Origin: a virus
Taxonomy: Duplodnaviria > Heunggongvirae > Uroviricota > Caudoviricetes
IMG/VR virus record: IMGVR_UViG_2706796243_000001
DNA: 64,000 bases
Strand: one strand, 5' to 3'
A program made the position numbers and the translations under genes. The notes below the pieces were generated by a model that saw only the letters and a list, made by a program, of their open reading frames with translations, had not been told where the DNA came from and ran no database searches. Positions within the stretch are counted from its first letter, which is position 1; each line of letters opens with the position of its first letter. Shown here one piece after another: positions 949-61,914 of the stretch.

Positions 949-1536
949 ATGAGTTTAGATTTGGAAATGGAATCGAAACCATCTACAAAACATCGTAGTT
1001 TAGTATGTGGTGTTGGCATAAACGATGCACCGTTTATCACGAGTATGCGGAAAGATGGAAAACTCCATCACCATACGGCCTACAAGGATTGGCACAATAT
1101 GATAAACAGATGCTACAGCGGTAAATACCCCTCTTATCATGGGGTTGTTGTGGTCGATAAGTGGCATTATTTTATGAACTTTCATACATGGTGGTGCAAC
1201 AATTATCAACAAGGATATGCACTTGACAAAGATTTGCTGGTAGAAGGGAACAAGGCTTACGGCCCTGATACTTGTATTTACATCCCTGTGTGGTTGAACA
1301 GTTATATTTCTCGAAATGGAAAACATGCAAGAGGTGTAACATTTGACAAAAAACTTTGTAAGTTCAAGGCACAGAGATCTAAAAATGACCCAAGGGGAAG
1401 GTATATAGGATATTTTGACACAGAGGAAGAGGCACATGCTGCATGGGAATCTGAGAATATATTTGATAACGACCTGAAATCACTTGATATTTCTCTTCAA
1501 GAACTTGTTTTGAAACGGTACGGTTTTTCAAAATGA
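949..1536 (+). CDS. putative freestanding homing-endonuclease-like protein with C-terminal AP2-type DNA-binding domain
   Basis: RBS GGAGGAAGG before the ATG. W-x2-M-x2-RC...Y.GV.V...W..F..F..W block followed by a GRYIGYFDTEEEAHAAWE AP2-like segment. Paralog of the ORF at 52611..53252. Confidence 0.5.
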   Translation: MSLDLEMESKPSTKHRSLVCGVGINDAPFITSMRKDGKLHHHTAYKDWHNMINRCYSGKYPSYHGVVVVDKWHYFMNFHTWWCNNYQQGYALDKDLLVEGNKAYGPDTCIYIPVWLNSYISRNGKHARGVTFDKKLCKFKAQRSKNDPRGRYIGYFDTEEEAHAAWESENIFDNDLKSLDISLQELVLKRYGFSK

Positions 1537-47300: not shown

Positions 47301-47993
47301 TCAAGCGATAATTTTCGGTTCTACGAAAGTGGTTGGCTTCATGATCTTGCCTTTACTATCGAAGAACACAATATGTTCACCACTACGCACAGCAGTTACA
47401 GAGTTGTAACGTCCTTTGGAGCGTATTTCAATCTCCTTGCATTCAGCAGTCAGCAACTCGTCATCAGTGTACAGATGAAGGGTTGGATGAACATCGCGAA
47501 GTTGTGCGATTGTAGGGTACTTAGAATCGTTTGACGTAAGCACTTGGCGCATATTGTAGTCCAAGTTAATATCTAATCGATAGCATAACGCTACAGACCG
47601 CTCAAGAACAGCACGAACAGATTCAATGGATAATGGTGTATTGAAAATGAGTTCTACCATCTCACCAATGTTGAACTGTACCATCCCATCAGGCTTCATT
47701 GCTTTTTCCCAACGAATACCAGAAGATTCAAGCAACCAGAAAGCATAGGACGAGACGACAAAGAGATCGCAAGCACCATCTACAACCTCGATACGATTGC
47801 CATCTTCAAGAGCCTTAACAAGCTCTTTGAATTCTTCTTCAACGAAAGAGAATTGCAAATCAATCGGAGTAGCCTTACCGCCGCGAGCGACACGAGCAAT
47901 ATGGTTCCATTGGGCTACATGACGACCATATTCAACAAGGTCTTTCGGTTTTGTCATTGACAGTAGGGTTTCATAAGTTACGCCGAAGTTCAT
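47301..47993 (-). CDS. MazG-like nucleoside triphosphate pyrophosphohydrolase (tentative)
   Basis: EEEFKELVKALEDGNRIEVVDGACDLFVV resembles the MazG E..EL...........E.GD core. Confidence 0.4.
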   Translation of the reverse strand: MNFGVTYETLLSMTKPKDLVEYGRHVAQWNHIARVARGGKATPIDLQFSFVEEEFKELVKALEDGNRIEVVDGACDLFVVSSYAFWLLESSGIRWEKAMKPDGMVQFNIGEMVELIFNTPLSIESVRAVLERSVALCYRLDINLDYNMRQVLTSNDSKYPTIAQLRDVHPTLHLYTDDELLTAECKEIEIRSKGRYNSVTAVRSGEHIVFFDSKGKIMKPTTFVEPKIIA

Positions 47994-48374: not shown

Positions 48375-48838
48375 TATGCACGTACCTCAGTGACTTTTAC
48401 AGCAGTTTCACCACGGATCTGGACATTAGACCCATCGTCGAGTTCAAGAATGGTGTCATCACCACTTACCTTGACCCCTTTGACGAGATATTCTTTGCCC
48501 CACATCTCAACCTTATCACCCATCACCACGTTCTTAGCCTTGTAATCACCAGGTAGACGATCTTCATCGGTCACAGGCTCATACAGGTCGCTAAAATCCT
48601 GTGGTGACATTGCACGGAATTGGTCGCCAACCTTAACGATATAATCACCAGGAAAAGCTTGGGTCCCATTCACATCCATGTTACGGATGTCTCGTGTGTG
48701 AATCTCTGAGTCTTTCCAGACACCAGTCTCCATCCACTTTGTCACTTGACCAACACCTGTGCTCGAACCATTGAACACATGTGCTTCCACTTCTTGAGGT
48801 TTTCTCTTATAAAATGCCATCAGTATACAGGCTCCCAT
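48374..48838 (-). CDS. hypothetical protein (154 aa)
   Basis: ORF. Confidence 0.45.
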   Translation of the reverse strand: MGACILMAFYKRKPQEVEAHVFNGSSTGVGQVTKWMETGVWKDSEIHTRDIRNMDVNGTQAFPGDYIVKVGDQFRAMSPQDFSDLYEPVTDEDRLPGDYKAKNVVMGDKVEMWGKEYLVKGVKVSGDDTILELDDGSNVQIRGETAVKVTEVRA

Positions 48839-50121
48839 GTTAATGAATCAACTTCTCGTACACTCTGCCCTACAGGGAACTGAGGAACACCGTCGTCAGT
48901 CCTTGCTTGGAATGTGAAGTTGATGAACTTACCGACCAGAAGTAACATTCTCGCTTGAGAACGTTCTTCACGCGTCCCCTTCATCTTACAGTTAAATCTG
49001 GTTCCGTCTTTTTCTTCGCAGAGGAGAACGCCCTCACCGTTTTTGTCCTCCACAGAGTCCAACACCTTCGCTTCACCATCCTGGAACAGCTTCCATTTCT
49101 GAAGGTCGGAAGATCGCTGACCGAATTCATACACGCCTTTGAAGTTGCGGATAATAACACCTTCATAACCCTCTTGCATGTATCGCCCAATGAACCGCTT
49201 AACCGCATCTTCATTCAGGACAAACTCACCACGAACAACATTTATTTTTGGTGCATTGACCTCACAATCAAGTGAATACATCACGCTAACAAGATCAGAT
49301 AGTCGGTTTTTATCATGGCTCTCTGAATGCCACGGGCTGTTTGCGTTTACAGGAATATCGAAAATGTGATATTCAAGGTCCAAACTTGAGTAACCGCCAT
49401 ATCGGTCAACATCTTTCACCGGTTCAATACTTACATCGTATTCATCACCATCAAAATCTTTCCATACTTGCTCACCGTTGTCAATAGCTTTCTGATAGCG
49501 TTTCAGATCTGATTGGTAATCCTTTTCAATCTCAACCTCGATCTGCTCAGGTGTACGCCACTTCTTAGCCAGAGCAACAATCTTCTGTAAGCTCAGACCA
49601 TGAATATATAGTTCACCATCAAATTTGTCAAACCCAGTATGCTCTGCAAGTTCTTTTGTCTGCTGCAACAATGCACCTTGAACAGGGTACGTCTTGTTTC
49701 CGCGACTATTAAATACTGGGATACCATCTTTGTCAAGAGTTACAAGGGCGCGTACCCCATCAAGCTTAGGCTGCACATAAGCAGGGTAAACTAATGCTTT
49801 TGAACGTTTAATTGCATCGTGTGCGAGCATGGGAGAGAAGTTCTCCTCAGTCTGTAACGCCTCTTTTGTCTCACGATAACCAAGGCGTACTTGCTTCTCC
49901 CATTTTGATCGCGCTTCAAGCACAGCCTGAAATGCAGCAGTTGTTTGATTAGCACGACCAACATTTTTCATTTCACATTTGGTACGTTTTTGCTGTACCT
50001 TTCCATTTTCTTTACCAAACTCAACAACTACCTCATCGCCCTCTGTTCTAACATTCCAGACCTGATAAGATCCGTCCTTGTTAATGGCGTACAGTGTTGG
50101 GGTATCTAAAGCAATCGACAT
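48820..50121 (-). CDS. ATP-dependent DNA ligase
   Basis: Motif I KLDGVRAL (KxDG) and later nucleotidyltransferase motifs; 433 aa. Confidence 0.8.
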   Translation of the reverse strand: MSIALDTPTLYAINKDGSYQVWNVRTEGDEVVVEFGKENGKVQQKRTKCEMKNVGRANQTTAAFQAVLEARSKWEKQVRLGYRETKEALQTEENFSPMLAHDAIKRSKALVYPAYVQPKLDGVRALVTLDKDGIPVFNSRGNKTYPVQGALLQQTKELAEHTGFDKFDGELYIHGLSLQKIVALAKKWRTPEQIEVEIEKDYQSDLKRYQKAIDNGEQVWKDFDGDEYDVSIEPVKDVDRYGGYSSLDLEYHIFDIPVNANSPWHSESHDKNRLSDLVSVMYSLDCEVNAPKINVVRGEFVLNEDAVKRFIGRYMQEGYEGVIIRNFKGVYEFGQRSSDLQKWKLFQDGEAKVLDSVEDKNGEGVLLCEEKDGTRFNCKMKGTREERSQARMLLLVGKFINFTFQARTDDGVPQFPVGQSVREVDSLTWEPVY

Positions 50122-50897
50122 TATTTCTCCTTACCTTGTAATGCTGTCTTACATTCAAGATGATCTTCCACAATCTTGATGAAATTGTTGTTGCTGAAAG
50201 CCTCTACAGCACCACAACGGAATTGCATAACACCATGAGCATCATACTGCTCTTGCTCAAGATAGTTGATACGTGGGTTTACCACAAGCACCTTTGTTCC
50301 TCTACGAACAGCAGGAAACAACTCCCAGTTGAAGTTGATGACTGTATTTGAGCATCCGACAACGATCACCATATCTTCATTGGTAAGGGTGTCAAGGATG
50401 TCATACATCCTGCTGTATTCTGGTGCAAATTCACCAAAGAACACAACATTGGGCTTACACCATTTATACTGATCAGGATCAACCTCGTTATAGCCTACAT
50501 CAATAATCTCCGGCTTTCCTTTCGGGTTGTCCTTGACAATGATTTCCTTCAGGTATCCATGAATGTAGACCGTATCCTCTTTCGGCACACCAGCACGTTC
50601 CAAAAGATCATCAACGTTGGTGGTCAAGTTAACAACCTGCCCTGGATAACGCTGGAACCACTCTGCAACGCGAAGGTGAGCCAGGTTCGGATGAACAGTC
50701 GGCAGTTCAGCACGACGCTTATTGTAAAACATGTGGGTTTTATGGTAGAAGTTTCCACGGAATGCGTGGATATTGCAAACCTCTTCCAGATCGTATTCAT
50801 CCCACAACGCCTTACCTGTTGACTCATCAGTACGGAAAGTTCGAACACCACTCTCAGCAGAGAAACCAGCACCAGAAATAACAATCAAACGTCTCAC
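50121..50897 (-). CDS. Sir2-family NAD-dependent protein deacylase / ADP-ribosyltransferase
   Basis: GAGFSAESGVRTFR Rossmann NAD-binding motif typical of sirtuins. Confidence 0.8.
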   Translation of the reverse strand: MRRLIVISGAGFSAESGVRTFRTDESTGKALWDEYDLEEVCNIHAFRGNFYHKTHMFYNKRRAELPTVHPNLAHLRVAEWFQRYPGQVVNLTTNVDDLLERAGVPKEDTVYIHGYLKEIIVKDNPKGKPEIIDVGYNEVDPDQYKWCKPNVVFFGEFAPEYSRMYDILDTLTNEDMVIVVGCSNTVINFNWELFPAVRRGTKVLVVNPRINYLEQEQYDAHGVMQFRCGAVEAFSNNNFIKIVEDHLECKTALQGKEK

Positions 50898-50906
50898 TTA
50901 TTTCTC

Positions 50907-51314
50907 CTATTGTAATTTCAACGAGTTACGCAGACGACGCTCTTGAGCATCTCGTGTTTCCTGCGGAACGCTGTGAATAGAATCGTTACCATGACGGTTT
51001 TCAACCACCAAGCTAACTACTTGATATCCATAATCATTAGCCAAGTCAAGGTACGGTTTAATTTCTTTCTCGCTGGTTGAGGTATTTGAAACGATCACGC
51101 GATCATAACCGATATCCATTGCCAGGCGAACGTTTTTCTGGCACCACTCGTGCGCCTTGTGCTGGTTTTCCTGCTTCCACCGGTACTCACCATCAACATA
51201 GTGGAACATATCCGCTTCGTAATGTGGAACATTGCTGTCATTCTTCAGGAGTTCTGCAACGGTTGATTTACCCGCACCAGAAACCCCACGAAGGATGATT
51301 AATGTCTTTTCCAT
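50907..51314 (-). CDS. P-loop polynucleotide 5'-kinase-like protein (T4 Pnk kinase-domain-like)
   Basis: Walker A GVSGAGKST; 135 aa; collinear with the N-terminal kinase domain of T4 Pnk. Confidence 0.5.
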   Translation of the reverse strand: MEKTLIILRGVSGAGKSTVAELLKNDSNVPHYEADMFHYVDGEYRWKQENQHKAHEWCQKNVRLAMDIGYDRVIVSNTSTSEKEIKPYLDLANDYGYQVVSLVVENRHGNDSIHSVPQETRDAQERRLRNSLKLQ

Positions 51315-51323
51315 ACCCTCTCC

Positions 51324-51689
51324 TCAGTAATTGTTTCTCAGAATGGTTACACCATACCGTGCCAAACTATCTTTTGCAAGCATAAACTTATGCCCTGCTG
51401 AAGGGTTCGATGTGTGAACGAACAGCTTGACCGGGCCAAAGAGCATCTTTCCGAAGACAATCTTTTCCTCAAGCGCCAGGAAACACCAATACCCATCATG
51501 ATCAGAATCTTCTCCAAGATCATTATCGAAGTGCCACTCCGTGACACGACGATATGGTTTTGACCGATTTTCGAGAAACTGAATAAAATCCTGCGAATTT
51601 TTTATCCACAAGGCATCTGGATGCCCGTAATTAACGGGGTCCCTTAAGTCATCGAGCCACACCAACATAAAAACGACTCCCACGGTCAA
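51324..51689 (-). CDS. hypothetical protein (121 aa)
   Basis: ORF. Confidence 0.4.
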   Translation of the reverse strand: MTVGVVFMLVWLDDLRDPVNYGHPDALWIKNSQDFIQFLENRSKPYRRVTEWHFDNDLGEDSDHDGYWCFLALEEKIVFGKMLFGPVKLFVHTSNPSAGHKFMLAKDSLARYGVTILRNNY

Positions 51690-52626
51690 AGAGATCTTCT
51701 ATCGTAAAATAATCTTCAACTATCTTACGACGCTGCTGTGAATCCATAGCTGACCAAGCATCTTTGGTGTAGTATTCACGAATATGGTCAAGCAATTCGT
51801 AATACTCTTCATCAATACGCTGCTTTGCGTTGTCTGGATGATCCCAGATCATATCCCACTTGTTATCACCACCACGCATCAAGAACTTCTTCGCCAGATA
51901 ATGAGGGGATTTGATTTTCAACAGTAAGCTGAACGGATAGTTTGGCTCACGCACAACATAACCTTCGTGGTTGCAATGCTTTGACATTTCAACAACATCT
52001 GAAAATTTAACCATCTGGTGAACTTCAGGACGCTTGAATTTAGTAACATTCGCGATTCCGTCAAGAGCACCTTCAGGCAGCATAAAACTTGTGCCGTCAC
52101 GGTTCTGGATTCGAGCACCAATCAGGTACGCCCCAGGCTCTTCATCAACAATATGCGGATCAGATGGATCACAGATTTCGAAGATGAACGTCGCCTTTGC
52201 ACTTTCTGTCCACTTAATGAAGTGCTCAATGTCATTGCATTCAGCAATGATGTGATTCTTCGCCAGAACTGCAAAGTCTGATTCCAGAGTTCCTGTAGTT
52301 GACACCACAAGCTGGCCCTTATACACACCAGCGGATGCCATAAATCCATTAACTTTACGAACTGCATCAACCACCTTGTCTGCCGGAAGGTCTGTGCCAT
52401 TTTCGAAGTGATTGAAAATCTTGGTGAAAGGCCAGATAACCACATTGTCATCCGAATCAACCACCATGCCACGGCATTCCAGGAGACGTGGATCTGTGTT
52501 CCACAGATTATCCCAGAAGACATTGTTTTTGTACTTCAGAACTGATAGGCCAGCGAACGGGCCATCAGTGTAAGTCTTCTTGGTGACCAGCTTTTTAGCG
52601 ACCAGATCGTCTACGTTAAAGAGCAT
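51649..52626 (-). CDS. ATP-dependent RNA ligase (Rnl2-like nucleotidyltransferase)
   Basis: Motif I KVNG, motif III FIFEIC, motif IV EGYVVR and motif V LKIKS are all present; 325 aa. Confidence 0.6.
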   Translation of the reverse strand: MLFNVDDLVAKKLVTKKTYTDGPFAGLSVLKYKNNVFWDNLWNTDPRLLECRGMVVDSDDNVVIWPFTKIFNHFENGTDLPADKVVDAVRKVNGFMASAGVYKGQLVVSTTGTLESDFAVLAKNHIIAECNDIEHFIKWTESAKATFIFEICDPSDPHIVDEEPGAYLIGARIQNRDGTSFMLPEGALDGIANVTKFKRPEVHQMVKFSDVVEMSKHCNHEGYVVREPNYPFSLLLKIKSPHYLAKKFLMRGGDNKWDMIWDHPDNAKQRIDEEYYELLDHIREYYTKDAWSAMDSQQRRKIVEDYFTIEDLFDRGSRFYVGVAR

Positions 52627-53252
52627 GTTTCTTCTCCCATTAGGATGTCATATTCAATTTTTGCAATAATATCTTGCAGCTTTTGTCTTATTCTAACATC
52701 CTGTTCTGAGATTGCAAGAGATTTTGCATGATTTCTCTTTTCAATTTGCCAAGCTTTATGAGCATCGGTTTCTGTTCTGAAACTACCAATATACCTTCCT
52801 TTGTAGTGGCAGTAAAATGTGTCCGCAAGGCGGGTTTCTTTGGAAACCCCTATCATATACTTGCCATTTTTCTTAACAGATGAAAAGAATTGATTACATT
52901 CTTGTGTTACGAATGCACAAGACTCTGGTGAGTATATTTTTCCGTCACCGAGGATATCCTTATCCAAGTAGAGGCCAGCAACATCCGTATCACCAACCCA
53001 CGAAATGAAATTGGAAAGGTAATACCATTCATCGCATACTGATACACTTTCATAATATTGGTGTTTATTGTGCTTTACAAGACATCTTCGCAACATATTT
53101 CGCCACTTAAGATATACAGGATGGAAAATCCTTTTTCCATCAACAACCCTCTGTGTAATTATATCAGAGTCATTGATACCAAGAGGGGAGCTAAGATCTT
53201 TTTTCATAACCATCTGCCTGATAATACGTTGTATTATACGGTGTCTCAACAC
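52611..53252 (-). CDS. freestanding homing-endonuclease-like protein with AP2 DNA-binding domain (paralog of 949..1536)
   Basis: YLKWRNMLRRC...YESVSVCDEWYYLSNF and GRYIGSFRTETDAHKAW; overlaps both neighbouring genes. Confidence 0.5.
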   Translation of the reverse strand: MLRHRIIQRIIRQMVMKKDLSSPLGINDSDIITQRVVDGKRIFHPVYLKWRNMLRRCLVKHNKHQYYESVSVCDEWYYLSNFISWVGDTDVAGLYLDKDILGDGKIYSPESCAFVTQECNQFFSSVKKNGKYMIGVSKETRLADTFYCHYKGRYIGSFRTETDAHKAWQIEKRNHAKSLAISEQDVRIRQKLQDIIAKIEYDILMGEETCSLT

Positions 53253-53547
53253 TGAAGCTTACCTGGCATAATTCCTGAGCCAAGTATGTCCCAAGTTCAA
53301 CAGCCATGTCAAGAATTTCATGTTCTGGTCGCTCAAAACGAGGATACTGCATGATACGCACAGTCATACCGTCTTCCACACCACCAGTATAAACATAAGT
53401 ACAAGGGGAAATCTGCACACATGCTCCCCTCATCACCCAGTGTCGGCAAAGATTTTCCGCCTGGTTGTAACTGCCAGCAATATGTATTGTGGCGTAAAAA
53501 GATTTTGATGTTTTCTTAGGCAAGAAATTGCGTTTTTGGTTGTGCAT
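53191..53547 (-). CDS. hypothetical protein (118 aa)
   Basis: ORF. Confidence 0.4.
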   Translation of the reverse strand: MHNQKRNFLPKKTSKSFYATIHIAGSYNQAENLCRHWVMRGACVQISPCTYVYTGGVEDGMTVRIMQYPRFERPEHEILDMAVELGTYLAQELCQVSFSVETPYNTTYYQADGYEKRS

Positions 53548-53556
53548 ACCATCTCC

Positions 53557-54150
53557 TCAGTGATGAATATCGTAAATAGGCTTTTTAAGGCACTCAGAAA
53601 CGGCCTCAAGCATCGTCAAAGGACGACCGTGGACATCCCAACCCACATCAAGGATTCGTCCACCAGGTGCCTTATATGAGCCGTGGCTATGTCCGTGGAG
53701 CATGACTGATCCGTGGTGTGCTTTATTCCAAGATGCAAACGGGTAGTGCGACATACACACCCGAACTTTTTCTTTTCCTGTGCTGAAATCAATTTCTTTA
53801 TAGTCAACAACTTCGTGACCAAACTCGCGAAATACCCGCTTTGTCGTGTGGTTGTCGTGGTTGCCACCAACCAAAATGATCTTTCCGTTGATTCGGCTAA
53901 GAATGTCACGAACCTTCGGCTCCACATGCTTACCATACGCGATCACAAAATCACCTAAATGTGCAACAACATCATCAGGTTTCACATGTTTGTTCCATGT
54001 TTTAACCATGTCGTCATTCATCTTGACAACACTCGCTGAATCTTCTTTCGGTCCGTACAGGTTTTTACGGAACTTATCACAGGATGGGAAACCAAGAATA
54101 TTGGTATGCCACCAATGTGTATCTGATGTTACATGATCGATATTAGTCAT
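53557..54150 (-). CDS. calcineurin-like metallophosphoesterase
   Basis: GDFVIAYG, GNHD and GHSH motifs. Confidence 0.7.
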   Translation of the reverse strand: MTNIDHVTSDTHWWHTNILGFPSCDKFRKNLYGPKEDSASVVKMNDDMVKTWNKHVKPDDVVAHLGDFVIAYGKHVEPKVRDILSRINGKIILVGGNHDNHTTKRVFREFGHEVVDYKEIDFSTGKEKVRVCMSHYPFASWNKAHHGSVMLHGHSHGSYKAPGGRILDVGWDVHGRPLTMLEAVSECLKKPIYDIHH

Positions 54151-55859: not shown

Positions 55860-56420
55860 ATGCTTGAAGTTATAAAATCGAAAGAGATAAGTGCTTCTGA
55901 AAAGGTTCTTTTGATGTTTATGGGGTTGAATGGTGTTGGGGTTTATACTTACCAAGATTTCATAAACTCCACAGGGTTGAGTAGAGCCACTGTTGGTAGG
56001 TCACTCTCTTCTCTGTATGAAAAGGGTTGGATCGAGAAGAAAACCGCCATCTCTGACAGTGGAGCGGAGAGTATTCAGTACAGTATTTCGTTTGGTGATT
56101 CTACAAATCCAAAATTTGAAAGAACCTGCTACGTTTATGTTCAAGAGCTTGCAGGCCCAGGCTTAACAATCGGAAAAGTTGGTATAGCATTTAATGTTTT
56201 CGAAAGAATGCGCCAACAATCAAAGAAAAGTTTGTTTCAGCACAAACTGATGTACTCCAAGCTGTTCAAAAGTTATGCTGAAGCTGCCAAAGTTGAGCAG
56301 ATTGTGTTGAGTGCGATCCCACAATTTGTTTGTGAAAAAGATTGGTTACCTGACGGCTTCACAGAGACAATCCACAAGCAAGATATTTTAAAGGCTATTC
56401 AAATAATTGAGGAGAAATAA
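55860..56420 (+). CDS. winged-helix DNA-binding protein (186 aa)
   Basis: YQDFINSTGLSRATVGRSLSSLYEKGWIEKK, a MarR/Rep-like wHTH. Confidence 0.5.
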   Translation: MLEVIKSKEISASEKVLLMFMGLNGVGVYTYQDFINSTGLSRATVGRSLSSLYEKGWIEKKTAISDSGAESIQYSISFGDSTNPKFERTCYVYVQELAGPGLTIGKVGIAFNVFERMRQQSKKSLFQHKLMYSKLFKSYAEAAKVEQIVLSAIPQFVCEKDWLPDGFTETIHKQDILKAIQIIEEK

Positions 56421-57222
56421 AATGAGTTTAGAACTTCGTCTGAACAACCTGATAGTCCCTGTTGATCGCCTTACATTCAAGGGTGGTGAAGAACAGGTTA
56501 AGATCGATTTAAGTTATGCACCAAAAGGTCACATTGGTTTTGTTGACATCACAGCAAAAATCAAGACATCTGCGGATGTTATGGCTCTTGCTCTGCTGGC
56601 AGATGCTTGCTCTCGACTTGATAACATTGATATTCATGCACAGTATGTCCTTCACCTGCCGTACATCCCCTATGCGCGTCAAGATCGTGTTATGCAACCT
56701 GGCGAGGCATTGTCCATCAAGGTTTTTGCAAACATCGTTAACTCACTTGGGTTTGATAAGGTTATCGTAGATGACCCGCACAGTGATGTTTCTGCTGCAC
56801 TTCTGAACAATGTTCGTATTCGGCACCAACATGAACTTGCAGCATCCTATAGTGATGTACTTGCTGGTAGGGATGTTACGATTATCGCACCAGATGCCGG
56901 AGCACGTAAAAAAGCGCAGAAGGTTTCTGAACATCTCCGTCTTCCGCTTGTTGAAGCAGGTAAGGTCCGTGATGTAAAAACTAACGAGATCACAGGTACT
57001 GCTGTCTTCGGGGATGTTACTGGTCGTGAATGTGTCATCGTTGATGACATTTGTGATGGTGGTCGCACATTCATCGCCCTTGCACAAGCGTTGAAGGAGA
57101 ATGGTGCAAAACGTGTTATCCTTTATGTAACACACGGTATTTTCTCATTCGGCAAGCAGGTCATTCTTGATGGTGGTGTAGATGAAATTTATGCATATCA
57201 CGACTGGACAGAAAACTTCTAA
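56407..57222 (+). CDS. ribose-phosphate pyrophosphokinase (PRS)-like protein; candidate ADPR-PP synthetase (Adps-like)
   Basis: PRTase PRPP-binding loop VIVDDICDGGRTF; shorter than bacterial Prs at 271 aa; lies directly upstream of the NAMPT-like gene. Confidence 0.7.
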   Translation: MRRNKMSLELRLNNLIVPVDRLTFKGGEEQVKIDLSYAPKGHIGFVDITAKIKTSADVMALALLADACSRLDNIDIHAQYVLHLPYIPYARQDRVMQPGEALSIKVFANIVNSLGFDKVIVDDPHSDVSAALLNNVRIRHQHELAASYSDVLAGRDVTIIAPDAGARKKAQKVSEHLRLPLVEAGKVRDVKTNEITGTAVFGDVTGRECVIVDDICDGGRTFIALAQALKENGAKRVILYVTHGIFSFGKQVILDGGVDEIYAYHDWTENF

Positions 57223-57289
57223 AATTTCTTGACATAGTATAAAACGGGTGCAAGAATGCACCCACAAATTTCACAGAGGAGAAACAAAC

Positions 57290-58984
57290 ATGCTGCATAA
57301 AGAAAGCCCGATTACTTTCGCTGATTTTTACAAACCGAGTCACATCTCGATGTATGACAAACGTTCTGAAATTGTTCAGGACAATATGACCGCCCGTAAC
57401 GCAAAGCACTTTATCCACTTCGCAGACAATGACCACCGTGTGATGTTTGCTGGTATTCAGGGATTCATCAAGTGGTTCCTGATCGATATGTTTAATGAAA
57501 ACTTTTTCAAACGCTCAAAGGAAGAAGCGATTTCAGATTATAAAGAAATTTGCGAACTGAGTATTGGACCGGGTATGGTGGAAATGTGGGGTTTTGAGAA
57601 GCTACACGATCTTGGTTATCTACCTCTGGAAATCCGTGCTTTACCAGAAGGCACTCTGGCTCCGGTGCAGGTTCCAATGTTCACTATCCAGAATACCCAT
57701 CCGGATTTTTACTGGTTACCGAACTTCCTGGAAAGTGTGATGTCAGCAGAAACCTGGAAAACAATCACAACTGCAACAACATTCTGGCAATATCGTAAAC
57801 TGTCTGAGAAATGGGCTGCTGAAACATGTGATAATAATCTGCATGTTCCTTTCCAGAACCACTGTTTTGCATATCGTGGTGAAGGTGGGACACATGACGC
57901 AGCACAGAGTGAATTTGGTCAACTGATCAGTTCTATGGGTACTGATACCATTCCCGCGATTGTGTATGCAAATCGTTATTACAACATGAAAGGTAAGTTC
58001 GTTTCTGGGTCTATCCCTGCATCTGAACACAGTGTTGCAACAACCAATATCGGTTTCATCGTTAATGAGATTGAAGAAAACACAGCAAATCAAGAATTCC
58101 TGAGCCTTGATCATAAACGTTATCTTGCAGAAGTCGAGTTCCTGAAGCGCTACATCACGGAAATTTTTCCGAAAGGTTTTGTTTCCTACGTTGCAGATAG
58201 CTATGACTTCTGGGCGATTATCACGAAAGCAGCAGCAATCTTGAAACATGAAATTCTTTCTCGTGAAGGTCGTGTTGTATTTCGTCCTGACTCAGGTATC
58301 CCTGAGCATATTATTGCCGGGTATCGCTGCTTGGGTGAGTTCGATGACTGGTCAGATGCTCACACAGCATTACAGGATGATTCAAACTCTGAAGTTGCTA
58401 AGATTGAGGGTAAATATTATCGCATTCTGGTAGATGATGAAGATAATGCATTCTTTGATTTCCAAGAGTCAGGTCTTGAAGATCATGAGGTAAAAGGTGC
58501 AGTAGAATGTTTGTGGGAAATCTTTGGTGGAGAAGTTAACTCCAAAGGGTACAAAGTTCTTGATAGTCATGTCGGCCTGATCTACGGTGACTCTATCACT
58601 GTTGCTCGTGCAAAAGATATCTTTGAACGACTGAAAGATCGTGGCTTTGCATCGAGTAACATCGTGTACGGTGTTGGTTCTTACACAACCCAGTACACAA
58701 CTCGTGATTCACTGGGTATGGCTGTGAAAGCAACGGGTGCAGTTATCGACGGCAAGCAGATCATGGTTGTCAAAGAGCCGAAGACTGACCTCGGTAAGAA
58801 ATCTGCAAAAGGTTTCCTGAAGGTTATTCGTGATGAAGACAATCAGTTAAAACTGGTTGACAATCTGGAGGTGCATGAGGTACAGTCTCGTGATAACGAA
58901 CTCCGTTGTGTCTTCCGAGACGGTCAGTTGATGATTGACGAAGACCTGACACAGATTCGTGATCGGGCAGCTTCTCAGCTTTAA
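57290..58984 (+). CDS. nicotinamide phosphoribosyltransferase (NAMPT/NadV)-like protein; candidate Namat
   Basis: GAGGAG RBS before ATG 57290; ~565 aa NAMPT-family protein with G.DS..YG.GS blocks; terminator follows. Confidence 0.75.
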   Translation: MLHKESPITFADFYKPSHISMYDKRSEIVQDNMTARNAKHFIHFADNDHRVMFAGIQGFIKWFLIDMFNENFFKRSKEEAISDYKEICELSIGPGMVEMWGFEKLHDLGYLPLEIRALPEGTLAPVQVPMFTIQNTHPDFYWLPNFLESVMSAETWKTITTATTFWQYRKLSEKWAAETCDNNLHVPFQNHCFAYRGEGGTHDAAQSEFGQLISSMGTDTIPAIVYANRYYNMKGKFVSGSIPASEHSVATTNIGFIVNEIEENTANQEFLSLDHKRYLAEVEFLKRYITEIFPKGFVSYVADSYDFWAIITKAAAILKHEILSREGRVVFRPDSGIPEHIIAGYRCLGEFDDWSDAHTALQDDSNSEVAKIEGKYYRILVDDEDNAFFDFQESGLEDHEVKGAVECLWEIFGGEVNSKGYKVLDSHVGLIYGDSITVARAKDIFERLKDRGFASSNIVYGVGSYTTQYTTRDSLGMAVKATGAVIDGKQIMVVKEPKTDLGKKSAKGFLKVIRDEDNQLKLVDNLEVHEVQSRDNELRCVFRDGQLMIDEDLTQIRDRAASQL

Positions 58985-61069: not shown

Positions 61070-61146
61070 GGTTCTGTAGCTTAGTTGGTTAGAGCGCTTC
61101 CCTCATAAGGAAGAGGTCGCAGGTTCAATTCCTGCCAGAACTACCA
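61070..61146 (+). tRNA. tRNA-Met (anticodon CAU; could also be an Ile lysidine type), CCA encoded
   Basis: Cloverleaf: acceptor GGTTCTG/CAGAACT, D-arm AGCTTAGTTGGTTAGAGC, anticodon arm CTTCC-CTCATAA-GGAAG, T-arm GCAGG-TTCAATT-CCTGC. Confidence 0.8.
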
Positions 61147-61838: not shown

Positions 61839-61914
61839 GGGGTATTAACACAGCGGTTAGTGTAGCGGCCTCTTAAGCCGAAGGTCGAAGGTTCGAATCC
61901 TTCATGCCCCACCA
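61839..61914 (+). tRNA. tRNA, probable Lys (anticodon CUU), CCA encoded
   Basis: Acceptor GGGGTAT/ATGCCCC (one G-U pair), D-stem ACAC/GTGT, anticodon loop CTCTTAA (one mismatch in the stem), T-arm GAAGG-TTCGAAT-CCTTC. Confidence 0.6.

Follow-up and report, generated by a model that had tools for sequence, protein, structure and literature searches.

What does a phage do with closely spaced genes for a kinase, an RNA ligase and a phosphoesterase? The question is raised by a 64,000-nucleotide stretch of caudoviral DNA (IMG/VR record IMGVR_UViG_2706796243_000001; called here, in its full length, the window), where predicted genes of these three kinds lie on the minus strand between positions 50121 and 54150. 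This interval is 100% identical to positions 76960-80989 (reverse strand) of Salmonella phage PVP-SE1 (NC_016071.1/GU070616.1; Seunavirus, Vequintavirinae) and likewise to phage SSE121, while phage KE22 is 93.5% identical. We consider it likely that the genes form a module for RNA end healing and sealing in a lytic phage, which mends tRNAs or other RNAs cut by host defence RNases that leave 2′,3′-cyclic-phosphate and 5′-OH ends. Products of PrrC or RloC cleavage of tRNA may be the substrate. A preliminary description of the window had proposed RNA repair, and its outline was right: every open reading frame (ORF) and motif that it listed is present on the minus strand where it had been placed, and the motifs are invariant among relatives, with the catalytic residues kept in homologues as distant as 37-50% identity. 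That said, it named the wrong ligase family and its list of components was incomplete, both in the genes counted as members (Sir2 and MazG-like) and in two ORFs that it left out, a cREC gene at 51324-51668 and a gene for a 118-residue protein at 53191-53547.

The gene for the ligase, gp105 (325 residues), is located at 51649-52626 (-). The protein had been described as Rnl2-like. It matches the Pfam family RNA_lig_T4_1 (PF09511; E 3e-13, 50.6 bits, with a curated cut-off of 28.3 bits), and no other Pfam ligase family is matched, even at E-values up to 10. Searches of the PDB by sequence gave nothing or weak matches for the single sequence, and a 24-sequence profile (hmmsearch) still missed T4 Rnl1. 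The family assignments of the ligase and of the kinase were settled by structure prediction with Foldseek and by hhalign comparisons with the T4 proteins Rnl1 and Pnkp (taken from NC_000866). The AlphaFold (AF2) model of gp105 has a predicted local distance difference test score (pLDDT) of 87. It suggests an adenylyltransferase domain and an all-helical C-terminal domain (residues 241-313 are modelled as helices) that is shorter than the one in T4, with no OB domain. Foldseek placed T4 Rnl1 at the top (5tt6/2c5u/9do4; E ~1e-12, template-modelling (TM) score 0.6), followed by the fungal Trl1 ligase domains (E 1e-11) and then archaeal Rnl3; structures of T4 Rnl2 rank 23rd and lower (E 7e-7, TM 0.42).

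The alignment of the gp105 family with T4 Rnl1 (hhalign probability 95.6%, E 1.3e-8) covers residues 47-264 only, and pairs R52, K69, F71, K91, E150, E221, K237 and K239 of gp105 with R54, K75, F77, K99, E159, E227, K240 and K242 of the T4 protein. The residues aligned to the catalytic and N-terminal elements of T4 Rnl1 are invariant in 24 homologues, and the motifs K91-x-N93-G94, F149-E150, E221-G222 and K237-x-K239 are kept across relatives. We assign gp105 to the Rnl1 family (the T4 gp63/Trl1 ligase clade) as a predicted RNA ligase. The preliminary description had also considered a second DNA ligase; by Pfam, fold and hhalign alike the protein is an RNA ligase instead. The change of family strengthens the repair reading, because Rnl1 is the tRNA-repair ligase of T4. 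The ligases of PVP-SE1 and a few relatives also end in a C-terminal extension of ~17 residues (IEDLFDRGSRFYVGVAR; 51649-51700 (-)), which overlaps the start of the cREC gene, is predicted to be disordered (pLDDT <50) and is missing from most homologues.

Could gp105 serve mainly to attach tail fibres, as T4 gp63 does in its second activity, with neighbours that are unrelated to it? The GenBank name, ‘RNA ligase and tail fiber protein attachment catalyst’, says as much and was transferred from T4 gp63, which is the closest characterised homologue. However, the identity to T4 Rnl1 is only ~18%, and the surrounding genes are metabolic genes of the early type and not genes for tail parts. The nucleotidyl-transfer residues are dispensable for tail-fibre attachment in T4, yet all of them are invariant in the gp105 family. 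The linkage and fusion with a polynucleotide kinase, described below, point to RNA chemistry, and we regard a mainly structural role as extremely improbable.

The kinase, gp107 (50907-51314 (-); ATPase in GenBank), is a stand-alone protein of 135 residues with a match to Pfam AAA_33 (E 1.4e-11, 45.3 bits; cut-off 27). A PADLOC scan returned generic P-loop matches only, and a PDB search with the single sequence gave nothing or weak matches. With a profile of eight orthologues from seven lineages the best PDB match is T4 Pnk (1LTQ, E 6.7e-8), followed by Pnkp1 (4XRP), seryl-tRNA(Sec) kinase and the kinase domain of CthPnkp (4GP7, E 6.8e-5), while shikimate, adenylate and deoxynucleoside kinases come in at E ~0.02 or worse, those of the shikimate and deoxynucleoside types at 0.03-0.2. 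The proposal that this Walker A protein is collinear with the T4 Pnk kinase domain is borne out by hhalign (97.4% probability, E 9e-12), whose alignment spans residues 1-149 of the 301 in T4 Pnkp, that is, the kinase domain only. The P-loop residues G13, G15 and K16 and also Asp35 are invariant among relatives. There is no C-terminal HAD 3′-phosphatase domain in the 135 residues of gp107. The 120 best matches listed from a large protein database are all shorter than 152 residues (most ~135) and stand alone, with only kinase-type (P-loop) Pfam domains. A deoxynucleoside monophosphate or shikimate-type kinase, either of which would have spoken against repair, is not what these data show, as Pnk matches far better. 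We place gp107 in the polynucleotide-kinase group, as a predicted 5′-OH polynucleotide kinase without a phosphatase domain.

The third protein, gp102 (53557-54150 (-), 197 residues; metallophosphoesterase in GenBank), is recognised as a calcineurin-like metallophosphoesterase from its motifs, family profile and PHROG match. The GDxx, GNHD and GHxH motifs that were pointed out earlier belong to a full metallophosphoesterase set (D10-x-H12, G66-D67, G96-N97-H98, H135 and G153-H154-x-H156), which is invariant in seven diverse orthologues. The protein matches PHROG 547 ‘phosphoesterase’ (E 2e-48). Its own Pfam search returned no match, and its single-sequence PDB search nothing or weak matches; an orthologue in one of the sampled loci (L042) matches Pfam Metallophos (E 1e-8), and the family profile finds the metallophosphoesterase 1XM7 (Aquifex aq_1665) at E 2.8e-19. 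The nearest NCBIfam models, YfcE (24.8 bits) and PdeM (17.7 bits, E 0.0018, cut-off 150), are both under their cut-offs. We consider gp102 a candidate 3′-end healing enzyme.

If these proteins act together, their genes should travel together. We examined two samples: nine GenBank loci from seven lineages (Seunavirus, Vequintavirus, Plateaulakevirus, Otagovirus, Pakpunavirus, Thalassavirus and Saclayvirus), four of them from Vequintavirinae, and 80 IMG/VR loci with an RNA ligase 37-79% identical to that of PVP-SE1, in which neighbours were scored within 10 kb of the ligase. All nine GenBank loci contain the full triad of ligase, kinase and phosphoesterase. Among the IMG/VR loci the kinase is near the ligase in 75 of 80 (74 on the same strand, median gap 0 nt), and some of those that lack it (L063, L066, L075) end at a contig edge close to the ligase. 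The phosphoesterase is found in 65 of 80 (64 on the same strand, median gap 118 nt). These figures confirm that the three are separate genes, tightly and widely linked. The preliminary description had contrasted this arrangement with a fused Pnk/Rnl1 pair in T4; in fact the two T4 genes are separate and ~1.4 kb apart (NC_000866), and the fusion within T4 Pnkp is between kinase and HAD phosphatase.

A counterpart of the supposed fusion does exist elsewhere. In 12 of the 80 IMG/VR loci the kinase and ligase are joined in one ORF of ~432 residues (L064:9527-10825 (+), L067, L069-L072, L076-L080 and L082), in which AAA_33 covers residues 16-115 and RNA_lig_T4_1 residues 184-367. This is strong evidence that the two work in one pathway. 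The same coupling is seen at a larger scale. Among 50,697 phage records, grouped by host-genus name, the ligase family is present in 750 and the kinase in 626, the surplus being mostly in Streptomyces phages. Elsewhere the counts are almost equal (ligase/kinase: Escherichia 199/198, Pseudomonas 175/173, Klebsiella 36/36, Acinetobacter 24/24), and in Aeromonas phages they are within two of each other.

The fusions and counts also bear on a reading in which the kinase and phosphoesterase heal DNA nicks with 5′-OH and 3′-phosphate ends for the adjacent DNA ligase, the RNA ligase being incidental. T4 Pnkp acts on DNA ends too. The gene for the DNA ligase is part of the same tightly packed block, and PdeM, the weak match of gp102 noted above, is a ligase-associated DNA-damage-response phosphoesterase. 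However, in all 12 fusions the partner of the kinase is the RNA ligase and never a DNA ligase, the numbers of kinase and RNA ligase records match nearly one to one, and although a DNA ligase lies within 10 kb in 30 of the 80 loci, the other 50 have none detected in that range. We give this reading very little credence. The DNA ligase itself (gp109, 48820-50121 (-); Pfam DNA_ligase_A_M and DNA_ligase_OB_2) is probably a replication gene and not a part of the RNA module.

Several observations weigh against RNA repair by this module. Asp35 of gp107 aligns to D35 of T4 Pnk with HMMER and to D36 with hhalign, a one-register ambiguity, and in the alignments no conserved counterpart of T4 Pnk R38 is seen in the kinase family. 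The phosphoesterase is a further difficulty. Its profile finds no CthPnkp or lambda phosphatase chain in the PDB at E-values up to 1, and since kinship to that branch is not detectable, the assignment of gp102 to RNA 3′-healing rests on gene context. The closest solved structure, 1XM7, carries no known function. The family is wider than the ligase family (1391 against 750 phage records) and includes Staphylococcus, Listeria and Enterococcus phages. In addition, none of the 12 fusion loci has the phosphoesterase nearby, so another 3′-healing enzyme may serve there. The putative roles of Sir2 and cREC, discussed below, are likewise drawn from gene context, and our literature search found no experimental work on the ligase and kinase families, on cREC or on the phage sirtuin clade.

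On balance we still favour RNA repair, and propose the following sequence of events. The kinase gp107 would phosphorylate the 5′-OH end of a cut RNA. The metallophosphoesterase gp102 would strip the 2′,3′-cyclic phosphate or 3′-phosphate, in the manner of the bacterial Pnkp metallophosphoesterase domain, and gp105 would then join the 3′-OH and 5′-phosphate ends via a lysine-AMP intermediate at K91.

How does this compare with established systems? T4 Pnkp (pseT) and Rnl1 (rnlA) counter the PrrC anticodon nuclease (NC_000866 annotation), and share with the PVP-SE1 proteins the ligase family and its catalytic residues, the homology of the kinase domain and the logic of healing followed by sealing. 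Unlike PVP-SE1, with its separate metallophosphoesterase, T4 has a HAD-type phosphatase fused to the kinase; T4 Rnl1 is also longer than gp105 (374 residues against 325), and the Sir2, cREC and MazG proteins of PVP-SE1 have no counterpart in the T4 repair pathway. The bacterial Pnkp of Clostridium thermocellum offers the three chemistries that are predicted for PVP-SE1, including a binuclear metallophosphoesterase for 3′-end healing. In the bacterial enzyme the kinase, metallophosphoesterase and ligase form one polypeptide, whereas PVP-SE1 has separate genes and no Hen1 partner. The fungal and plant Trl1 and Tpt1 enzymes resemble the phage system in the ligase fold and in the kinase-ligase fusions of related phages, although in the phages the kinase precedes the ligase and in Trl1 the order is reversed. 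A further parallel, argued in PMC9503650, is between the cyclic-phosphate and NAD-using enzymes of these phages and the pair of cyclic phosphodiesterase (CPD) and Tpt1, where NAD is nicotinamide adenine dinucleotide. In fold, however, neither cREC nor Sir2 is related to the 2H phosphodiesterase or to Tpt1, and their activities are predicted.

The last of these comparisons depends on genes that lie on either side of the kinase. The cREC protein, gp106 (51324-51668 (-), 114 residues; hypothetical protein in GenBank), matches Pfam PF20274 cREC_REC (E 2.6e-14, 54.1 bits, cut-off 27) over profile positions 1-83 of 88, and one GenBank record already gives a homologue of gp106 this name. The cyclic-phosphate-processing receiver (cREC) was defined in a 2021 paper on jumbo phages by the authors of PMC9503650, and its activity is a published prediction. 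The Sir2-family protein, gp108 (50121-50897 (-), 258 residues), matches Pfam SIR2 (E 3.4e-22, 79.7 bits, cut-off 24) and is 61% identical to a Sir2-like protein of phage T5. Its best PDB match is E. coli CobB (1S5P, E 2.2e-18). The GAGxSxxSGxxxFR, TxNxD and HG elements of CobB, for NAD binding and the catalytic histidine, are kept; the zinc cysteines of CobB are not conserved, and the aligned zinc-module region holds a single cysteine. The MazG-like nucleotide pyrophosphohydrolase, gp112 (47301-47993 (-); nucleotide pyrophosphohydrolase in GenBank), has a weak match to Pfam PRA-PH just under the cut-off (E 5e-4).

In the GenBank sample these three genes are confined to the four Vequintavirinae loci, and in IMG/VR they are near the ligase in 10 (Sir2), nine (cREC) and 12 (MazG-like) of the 80 loci. 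Across the phage records cREC is narrower than the ligase (347 records) and Sir2 is broader (1004, including T5-like phages). The MazG-like gene is kept in the rV5 locus and is the last gene of a conserved Vequintavirinae block. The DNA ligase and Sir2 genes had been presented as direct neighbours; their positions agree with this, but Sir2 is no bystander, since Sir2, cREC and the MazG-like gene all belong to that conserved block.

What might Sir2 and cREC add? After Iyer et al. (2022), the Vequintavirinae may have a second, NAD-dependent branch of repair, in which cREC would open the cyclic phosphate and the sirtuin would take off the remaining 2′-phosphate by ADP-ribosyl transfer, like Tpt1/KptA. 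From gene context and the published proposal, we hold such an alternative branch to be a tentative possibility. The fuller version is that the zinc-less sirtuin is an NAD-dependent RNA 2′-phosphotransferase analogous to Tpt1/KptA and cREC a new type of 2′,3′-cyclic phosphodiesterase, giving, with the kinase and ligase, a yeast-like tRNA repair in phages for which NARP1-like genes sustain the NAD. The yeast-like part is the hypothesis of Iyer et al. and the link to NAD reconstitution is added here; gene context is the one line of evidence that bears on it and suggests such a pathway, which we nonetheless rate as unlikely.

On the plus strand, 2.3 kb away from the module, lie the NARP1-like genes: a Prs-like gene at 56407-57222 (+) (TIGR01251, E 5e-47) and a Nampt-like gene at 57248-58984 (+) (NF006629, E 1e-142). 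The pair resembles Adps and Namat of NARP1, which use ADP-ribose and nicotinamide to rebuild NAD (Osterman et al. 2024). In the 80 IMG/VR loci, homologues of the two are found within 10 kb of the ligase in 32 (Prs-like) and 40 (Nampt-like) cases, and the pair is found in seven of the nine GenBank loci. In the Pakpunavirus JG005 the order is contiguous: ligase, kinase, Prs-like, hypothetical protein and Nampt-like. The term ‘RNA ligase’ does not appear in the text of the NARP1 preprint, and the available portions of other related papers make no mention of the linkage. Two other candidates were set aside: NARP3 (PnuC and NadR) is unrelated to the module genes, and gp102 is not the Macro-domain phosphatase found in extended NARP1.

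Does this proximity mean that the module acts on small molecules? The kinase, phosphoesterase, cREC, MazG-like and Sir2 proteins could process NAD and ADP-ribose compounds together with the NAD-reconstitution genes, and the ligase could be an adenylyltransferase that acts on a mononucleotide. The nearby pair in PVP-SE1 and so many other loci, the contiguous order in JG005, and the association of Sir2, cREC and MazG with NAD and ADP-ribose in published analyses would all fit. Yet the ligase retains all of the polynucleotide-ligase catalytic residues and its best fold matches are tRNA ligases, and the kinase is most similar to polynucleotide kinases, with nicotinamide riboside kinase at just E 0.02. 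NARP1 functions with two genes alone, and both rV5 and Aeromonas phage 2L372X have the kinase-ligase-phosphoesterase triad with no Prs/Nampt pair in the locus. The proximity may merely reflect a common early or accessory region. We find a purely metabolic role very improbable.

The remaining question is whose RNA would be repaired. The window contains two phage tRNA genes, tRNA-Met(CAT) at 61070-61146 (+) and tRNA-Lys(CTT) at 61839-61914 (+). tRNA-Lys is the isoacceptor family that PrrC attacks in E. coli, and with a copy of its own beside a repair module the phage may gain a further safeguard. The same genes can be read in another way, with the module processing the phage's own RNAs, in tRNA maturation or after collateral damage by phage nucleases, and having no part in counter-defence. 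Phages of the PVP-SE1 type carry tRNA genes, and in rV5 a six-gene tRNA cluster is found ~4 kb from the module. However, we saw no intron-containing tRNA or dedicated endonuclease in the block, the module sits beside other counter-defence genes, and the sole characterised phage precedent, T4 Pnkp and Rnl1, counters PrrC. We think it improbable that the module serves the phage's own RNAs. Each of the four alternatives has some support, but an RNA-repair module accounts better than any of them for the kinase-ligase fusion and the polynucleotide-type active sites.

Between the ligase and the phosphoesterase lie two further genes. The first, gp104 (HNH endonuclease in GenBank), is a mobile endonuclease-like gene. 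It had been placed at 52611-53252 and said to overlap both neighbours. The overlap stands, but the GTG start at 53252 is merely the mechanical maximum; three other records have a 597-nt gene that starts from the ATG at 53207, and read in this way (52611-53207 (-)) it still shares 17 nt with the upstream gene and 16 nt with the ligase gene. The suggested AP2-like domain remains a candidate, now backed by homologues and a fold comparison. A paralogue of gp104 is present elsewhere in the window at 994-1518 (+) (37% identity over 185 residues), and tblastn finds the gp104-like family at three places in the PVP-SE1 genome, so it is multi-copy.

The preliminary description had also taken the gene to be a recent insertion, and the comparison of related phages supports this. 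The inserted DNA, 564 nt at ~52627-53190, is far more conserved than its flanks and shows presence/absence polymorphism at one site. In GEC_vB_MG and R7 52627-53190 is 100% identical and in SalP219 98.9%, while identity in the same three phages is 72-74% for the adjacent gp103 gene and 71-100% for the remaining genes of the block. The insert is absent from KE22, where just 54 nt separate the ligase start from the gp103 gene, and from SPLA5a, which has a different ORF of 65 residues at this site (L003:5950-6147 (-)). In SalP219 a 5-methylcytosine methyltransferase gene lies between gp103 and the phosphoesterase (L012:4900-5751 (-)). On account of these differences we describe the site as an insertion hot spot. 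The insert provides the ribosome-binding site and first codons of the ligase (MLF, not MKF). To judge from these alignments, gp104 is a selfish mobile insertion, predicted to stand outside the pathway.

The other gene, gp103 (53191-53547 (-), 118 residues; hypothetical protein in GenBank), belongs to PHROG 4848 and has no Pfam or NCBIfam match. It is limited to Seunavirus and close relatives among Klebsiella phages (3 of 9 GenBank and 5 of 80 IMG/VR loci) and is not a conserved member of the module. The gp103 gene of KE22 is 94% identical to that of PVP-SE1, against 72-74% in the carriers of the endonuclease gene. For the kinase gene (50907-51314; compared in L002, L010, L011 and L012) the figures are 99.8% in GEC_vB_MG and ~71% in KE22 and SalP219. 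The Seunavirus block is strongly mosaic, and recombination around the insertion site appears to involve two classes of allele.

The whole block is compact. From 54150 down to 47301 all genes are on the minus strand, and neighbouring genes overlap or sit no more than 9 nt apart. A perfect sigma-70 consensus (TTGACA, 16 nt, TATAAT; 12/12) is located at 47304-47277 (-), at the 3′ end of the MazG-like gene, and coincides with a promoter annotated in the PVP-SE1 record. The total number of promoter-like sites in the region shows no excess (24 against 18.4 ± 4.0 in shuffled sequence), so it is the single 12/12 site that is worth noting. The tight packing and this promoter fit one predicted transcription unit from 54150 to 47301, and the promoter probably marks the start of the next unit.

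How much of this is new? The genome has been published and annotated and the RNA-repair reading is in print, so the computational prediction was already known. Section 3.7.3 of Iyer, Burroughs, Anantharaman and Aravind (2022, Viruses 14:1977, PMC9503650) predicts the neighbourhood for relatives of phage rV5 (the Escherichia phage V5/Proteus phage Mydo type), with a gene set of sirtuin, T4-like tRNA ligase, cREC, nucleotide kinase, MazG-superfamily pyrophosphatase and calcineurin-like phosphoesterase, and proposes that the sirtuin acts like KptA/Tpt1 on the 2′-phosphate. PVP-SE1, from the subfamily to which rV5 belongs, has the gene set of that section, and an orthologue of each gene is present in rV5. 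The arrangement differs: in rV5 the phosphoesterase and kinase are divergent from the ligase, cREC, Sir2 and MazG genes, whereas PVP-SE1 has all of them in one direction, in a block that is split by the mobile endonuclease gene and the 118-residue gene. The section calls the phosphoesterase ‘occasional’; in our samples it is commoner than Sir2 or cREC. A 2025 paper on Pakpunavirus annotates the kinase and ligase as tRNA repair in that genus and, in its account of them, notes the missing phosphatase domain. What is added here are the linkage figures, the kinase-ligase fusions, the frequent proximity of NARP1-like genes and the recent spread of the endonuclease gene.

If the repair reading is true, the module would be a widespread phage counter-measure to defences that cut tRNA or other RNAs. 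Phages that bear it (PVP-SE1, the Pakpunavirus group and rV5 relatives) are used in therapy and biocontrol, and the module could therefore affect host range. The Sir2 and cREC genes, for their part, would offer a concrete route to two unproven enzyme activities.

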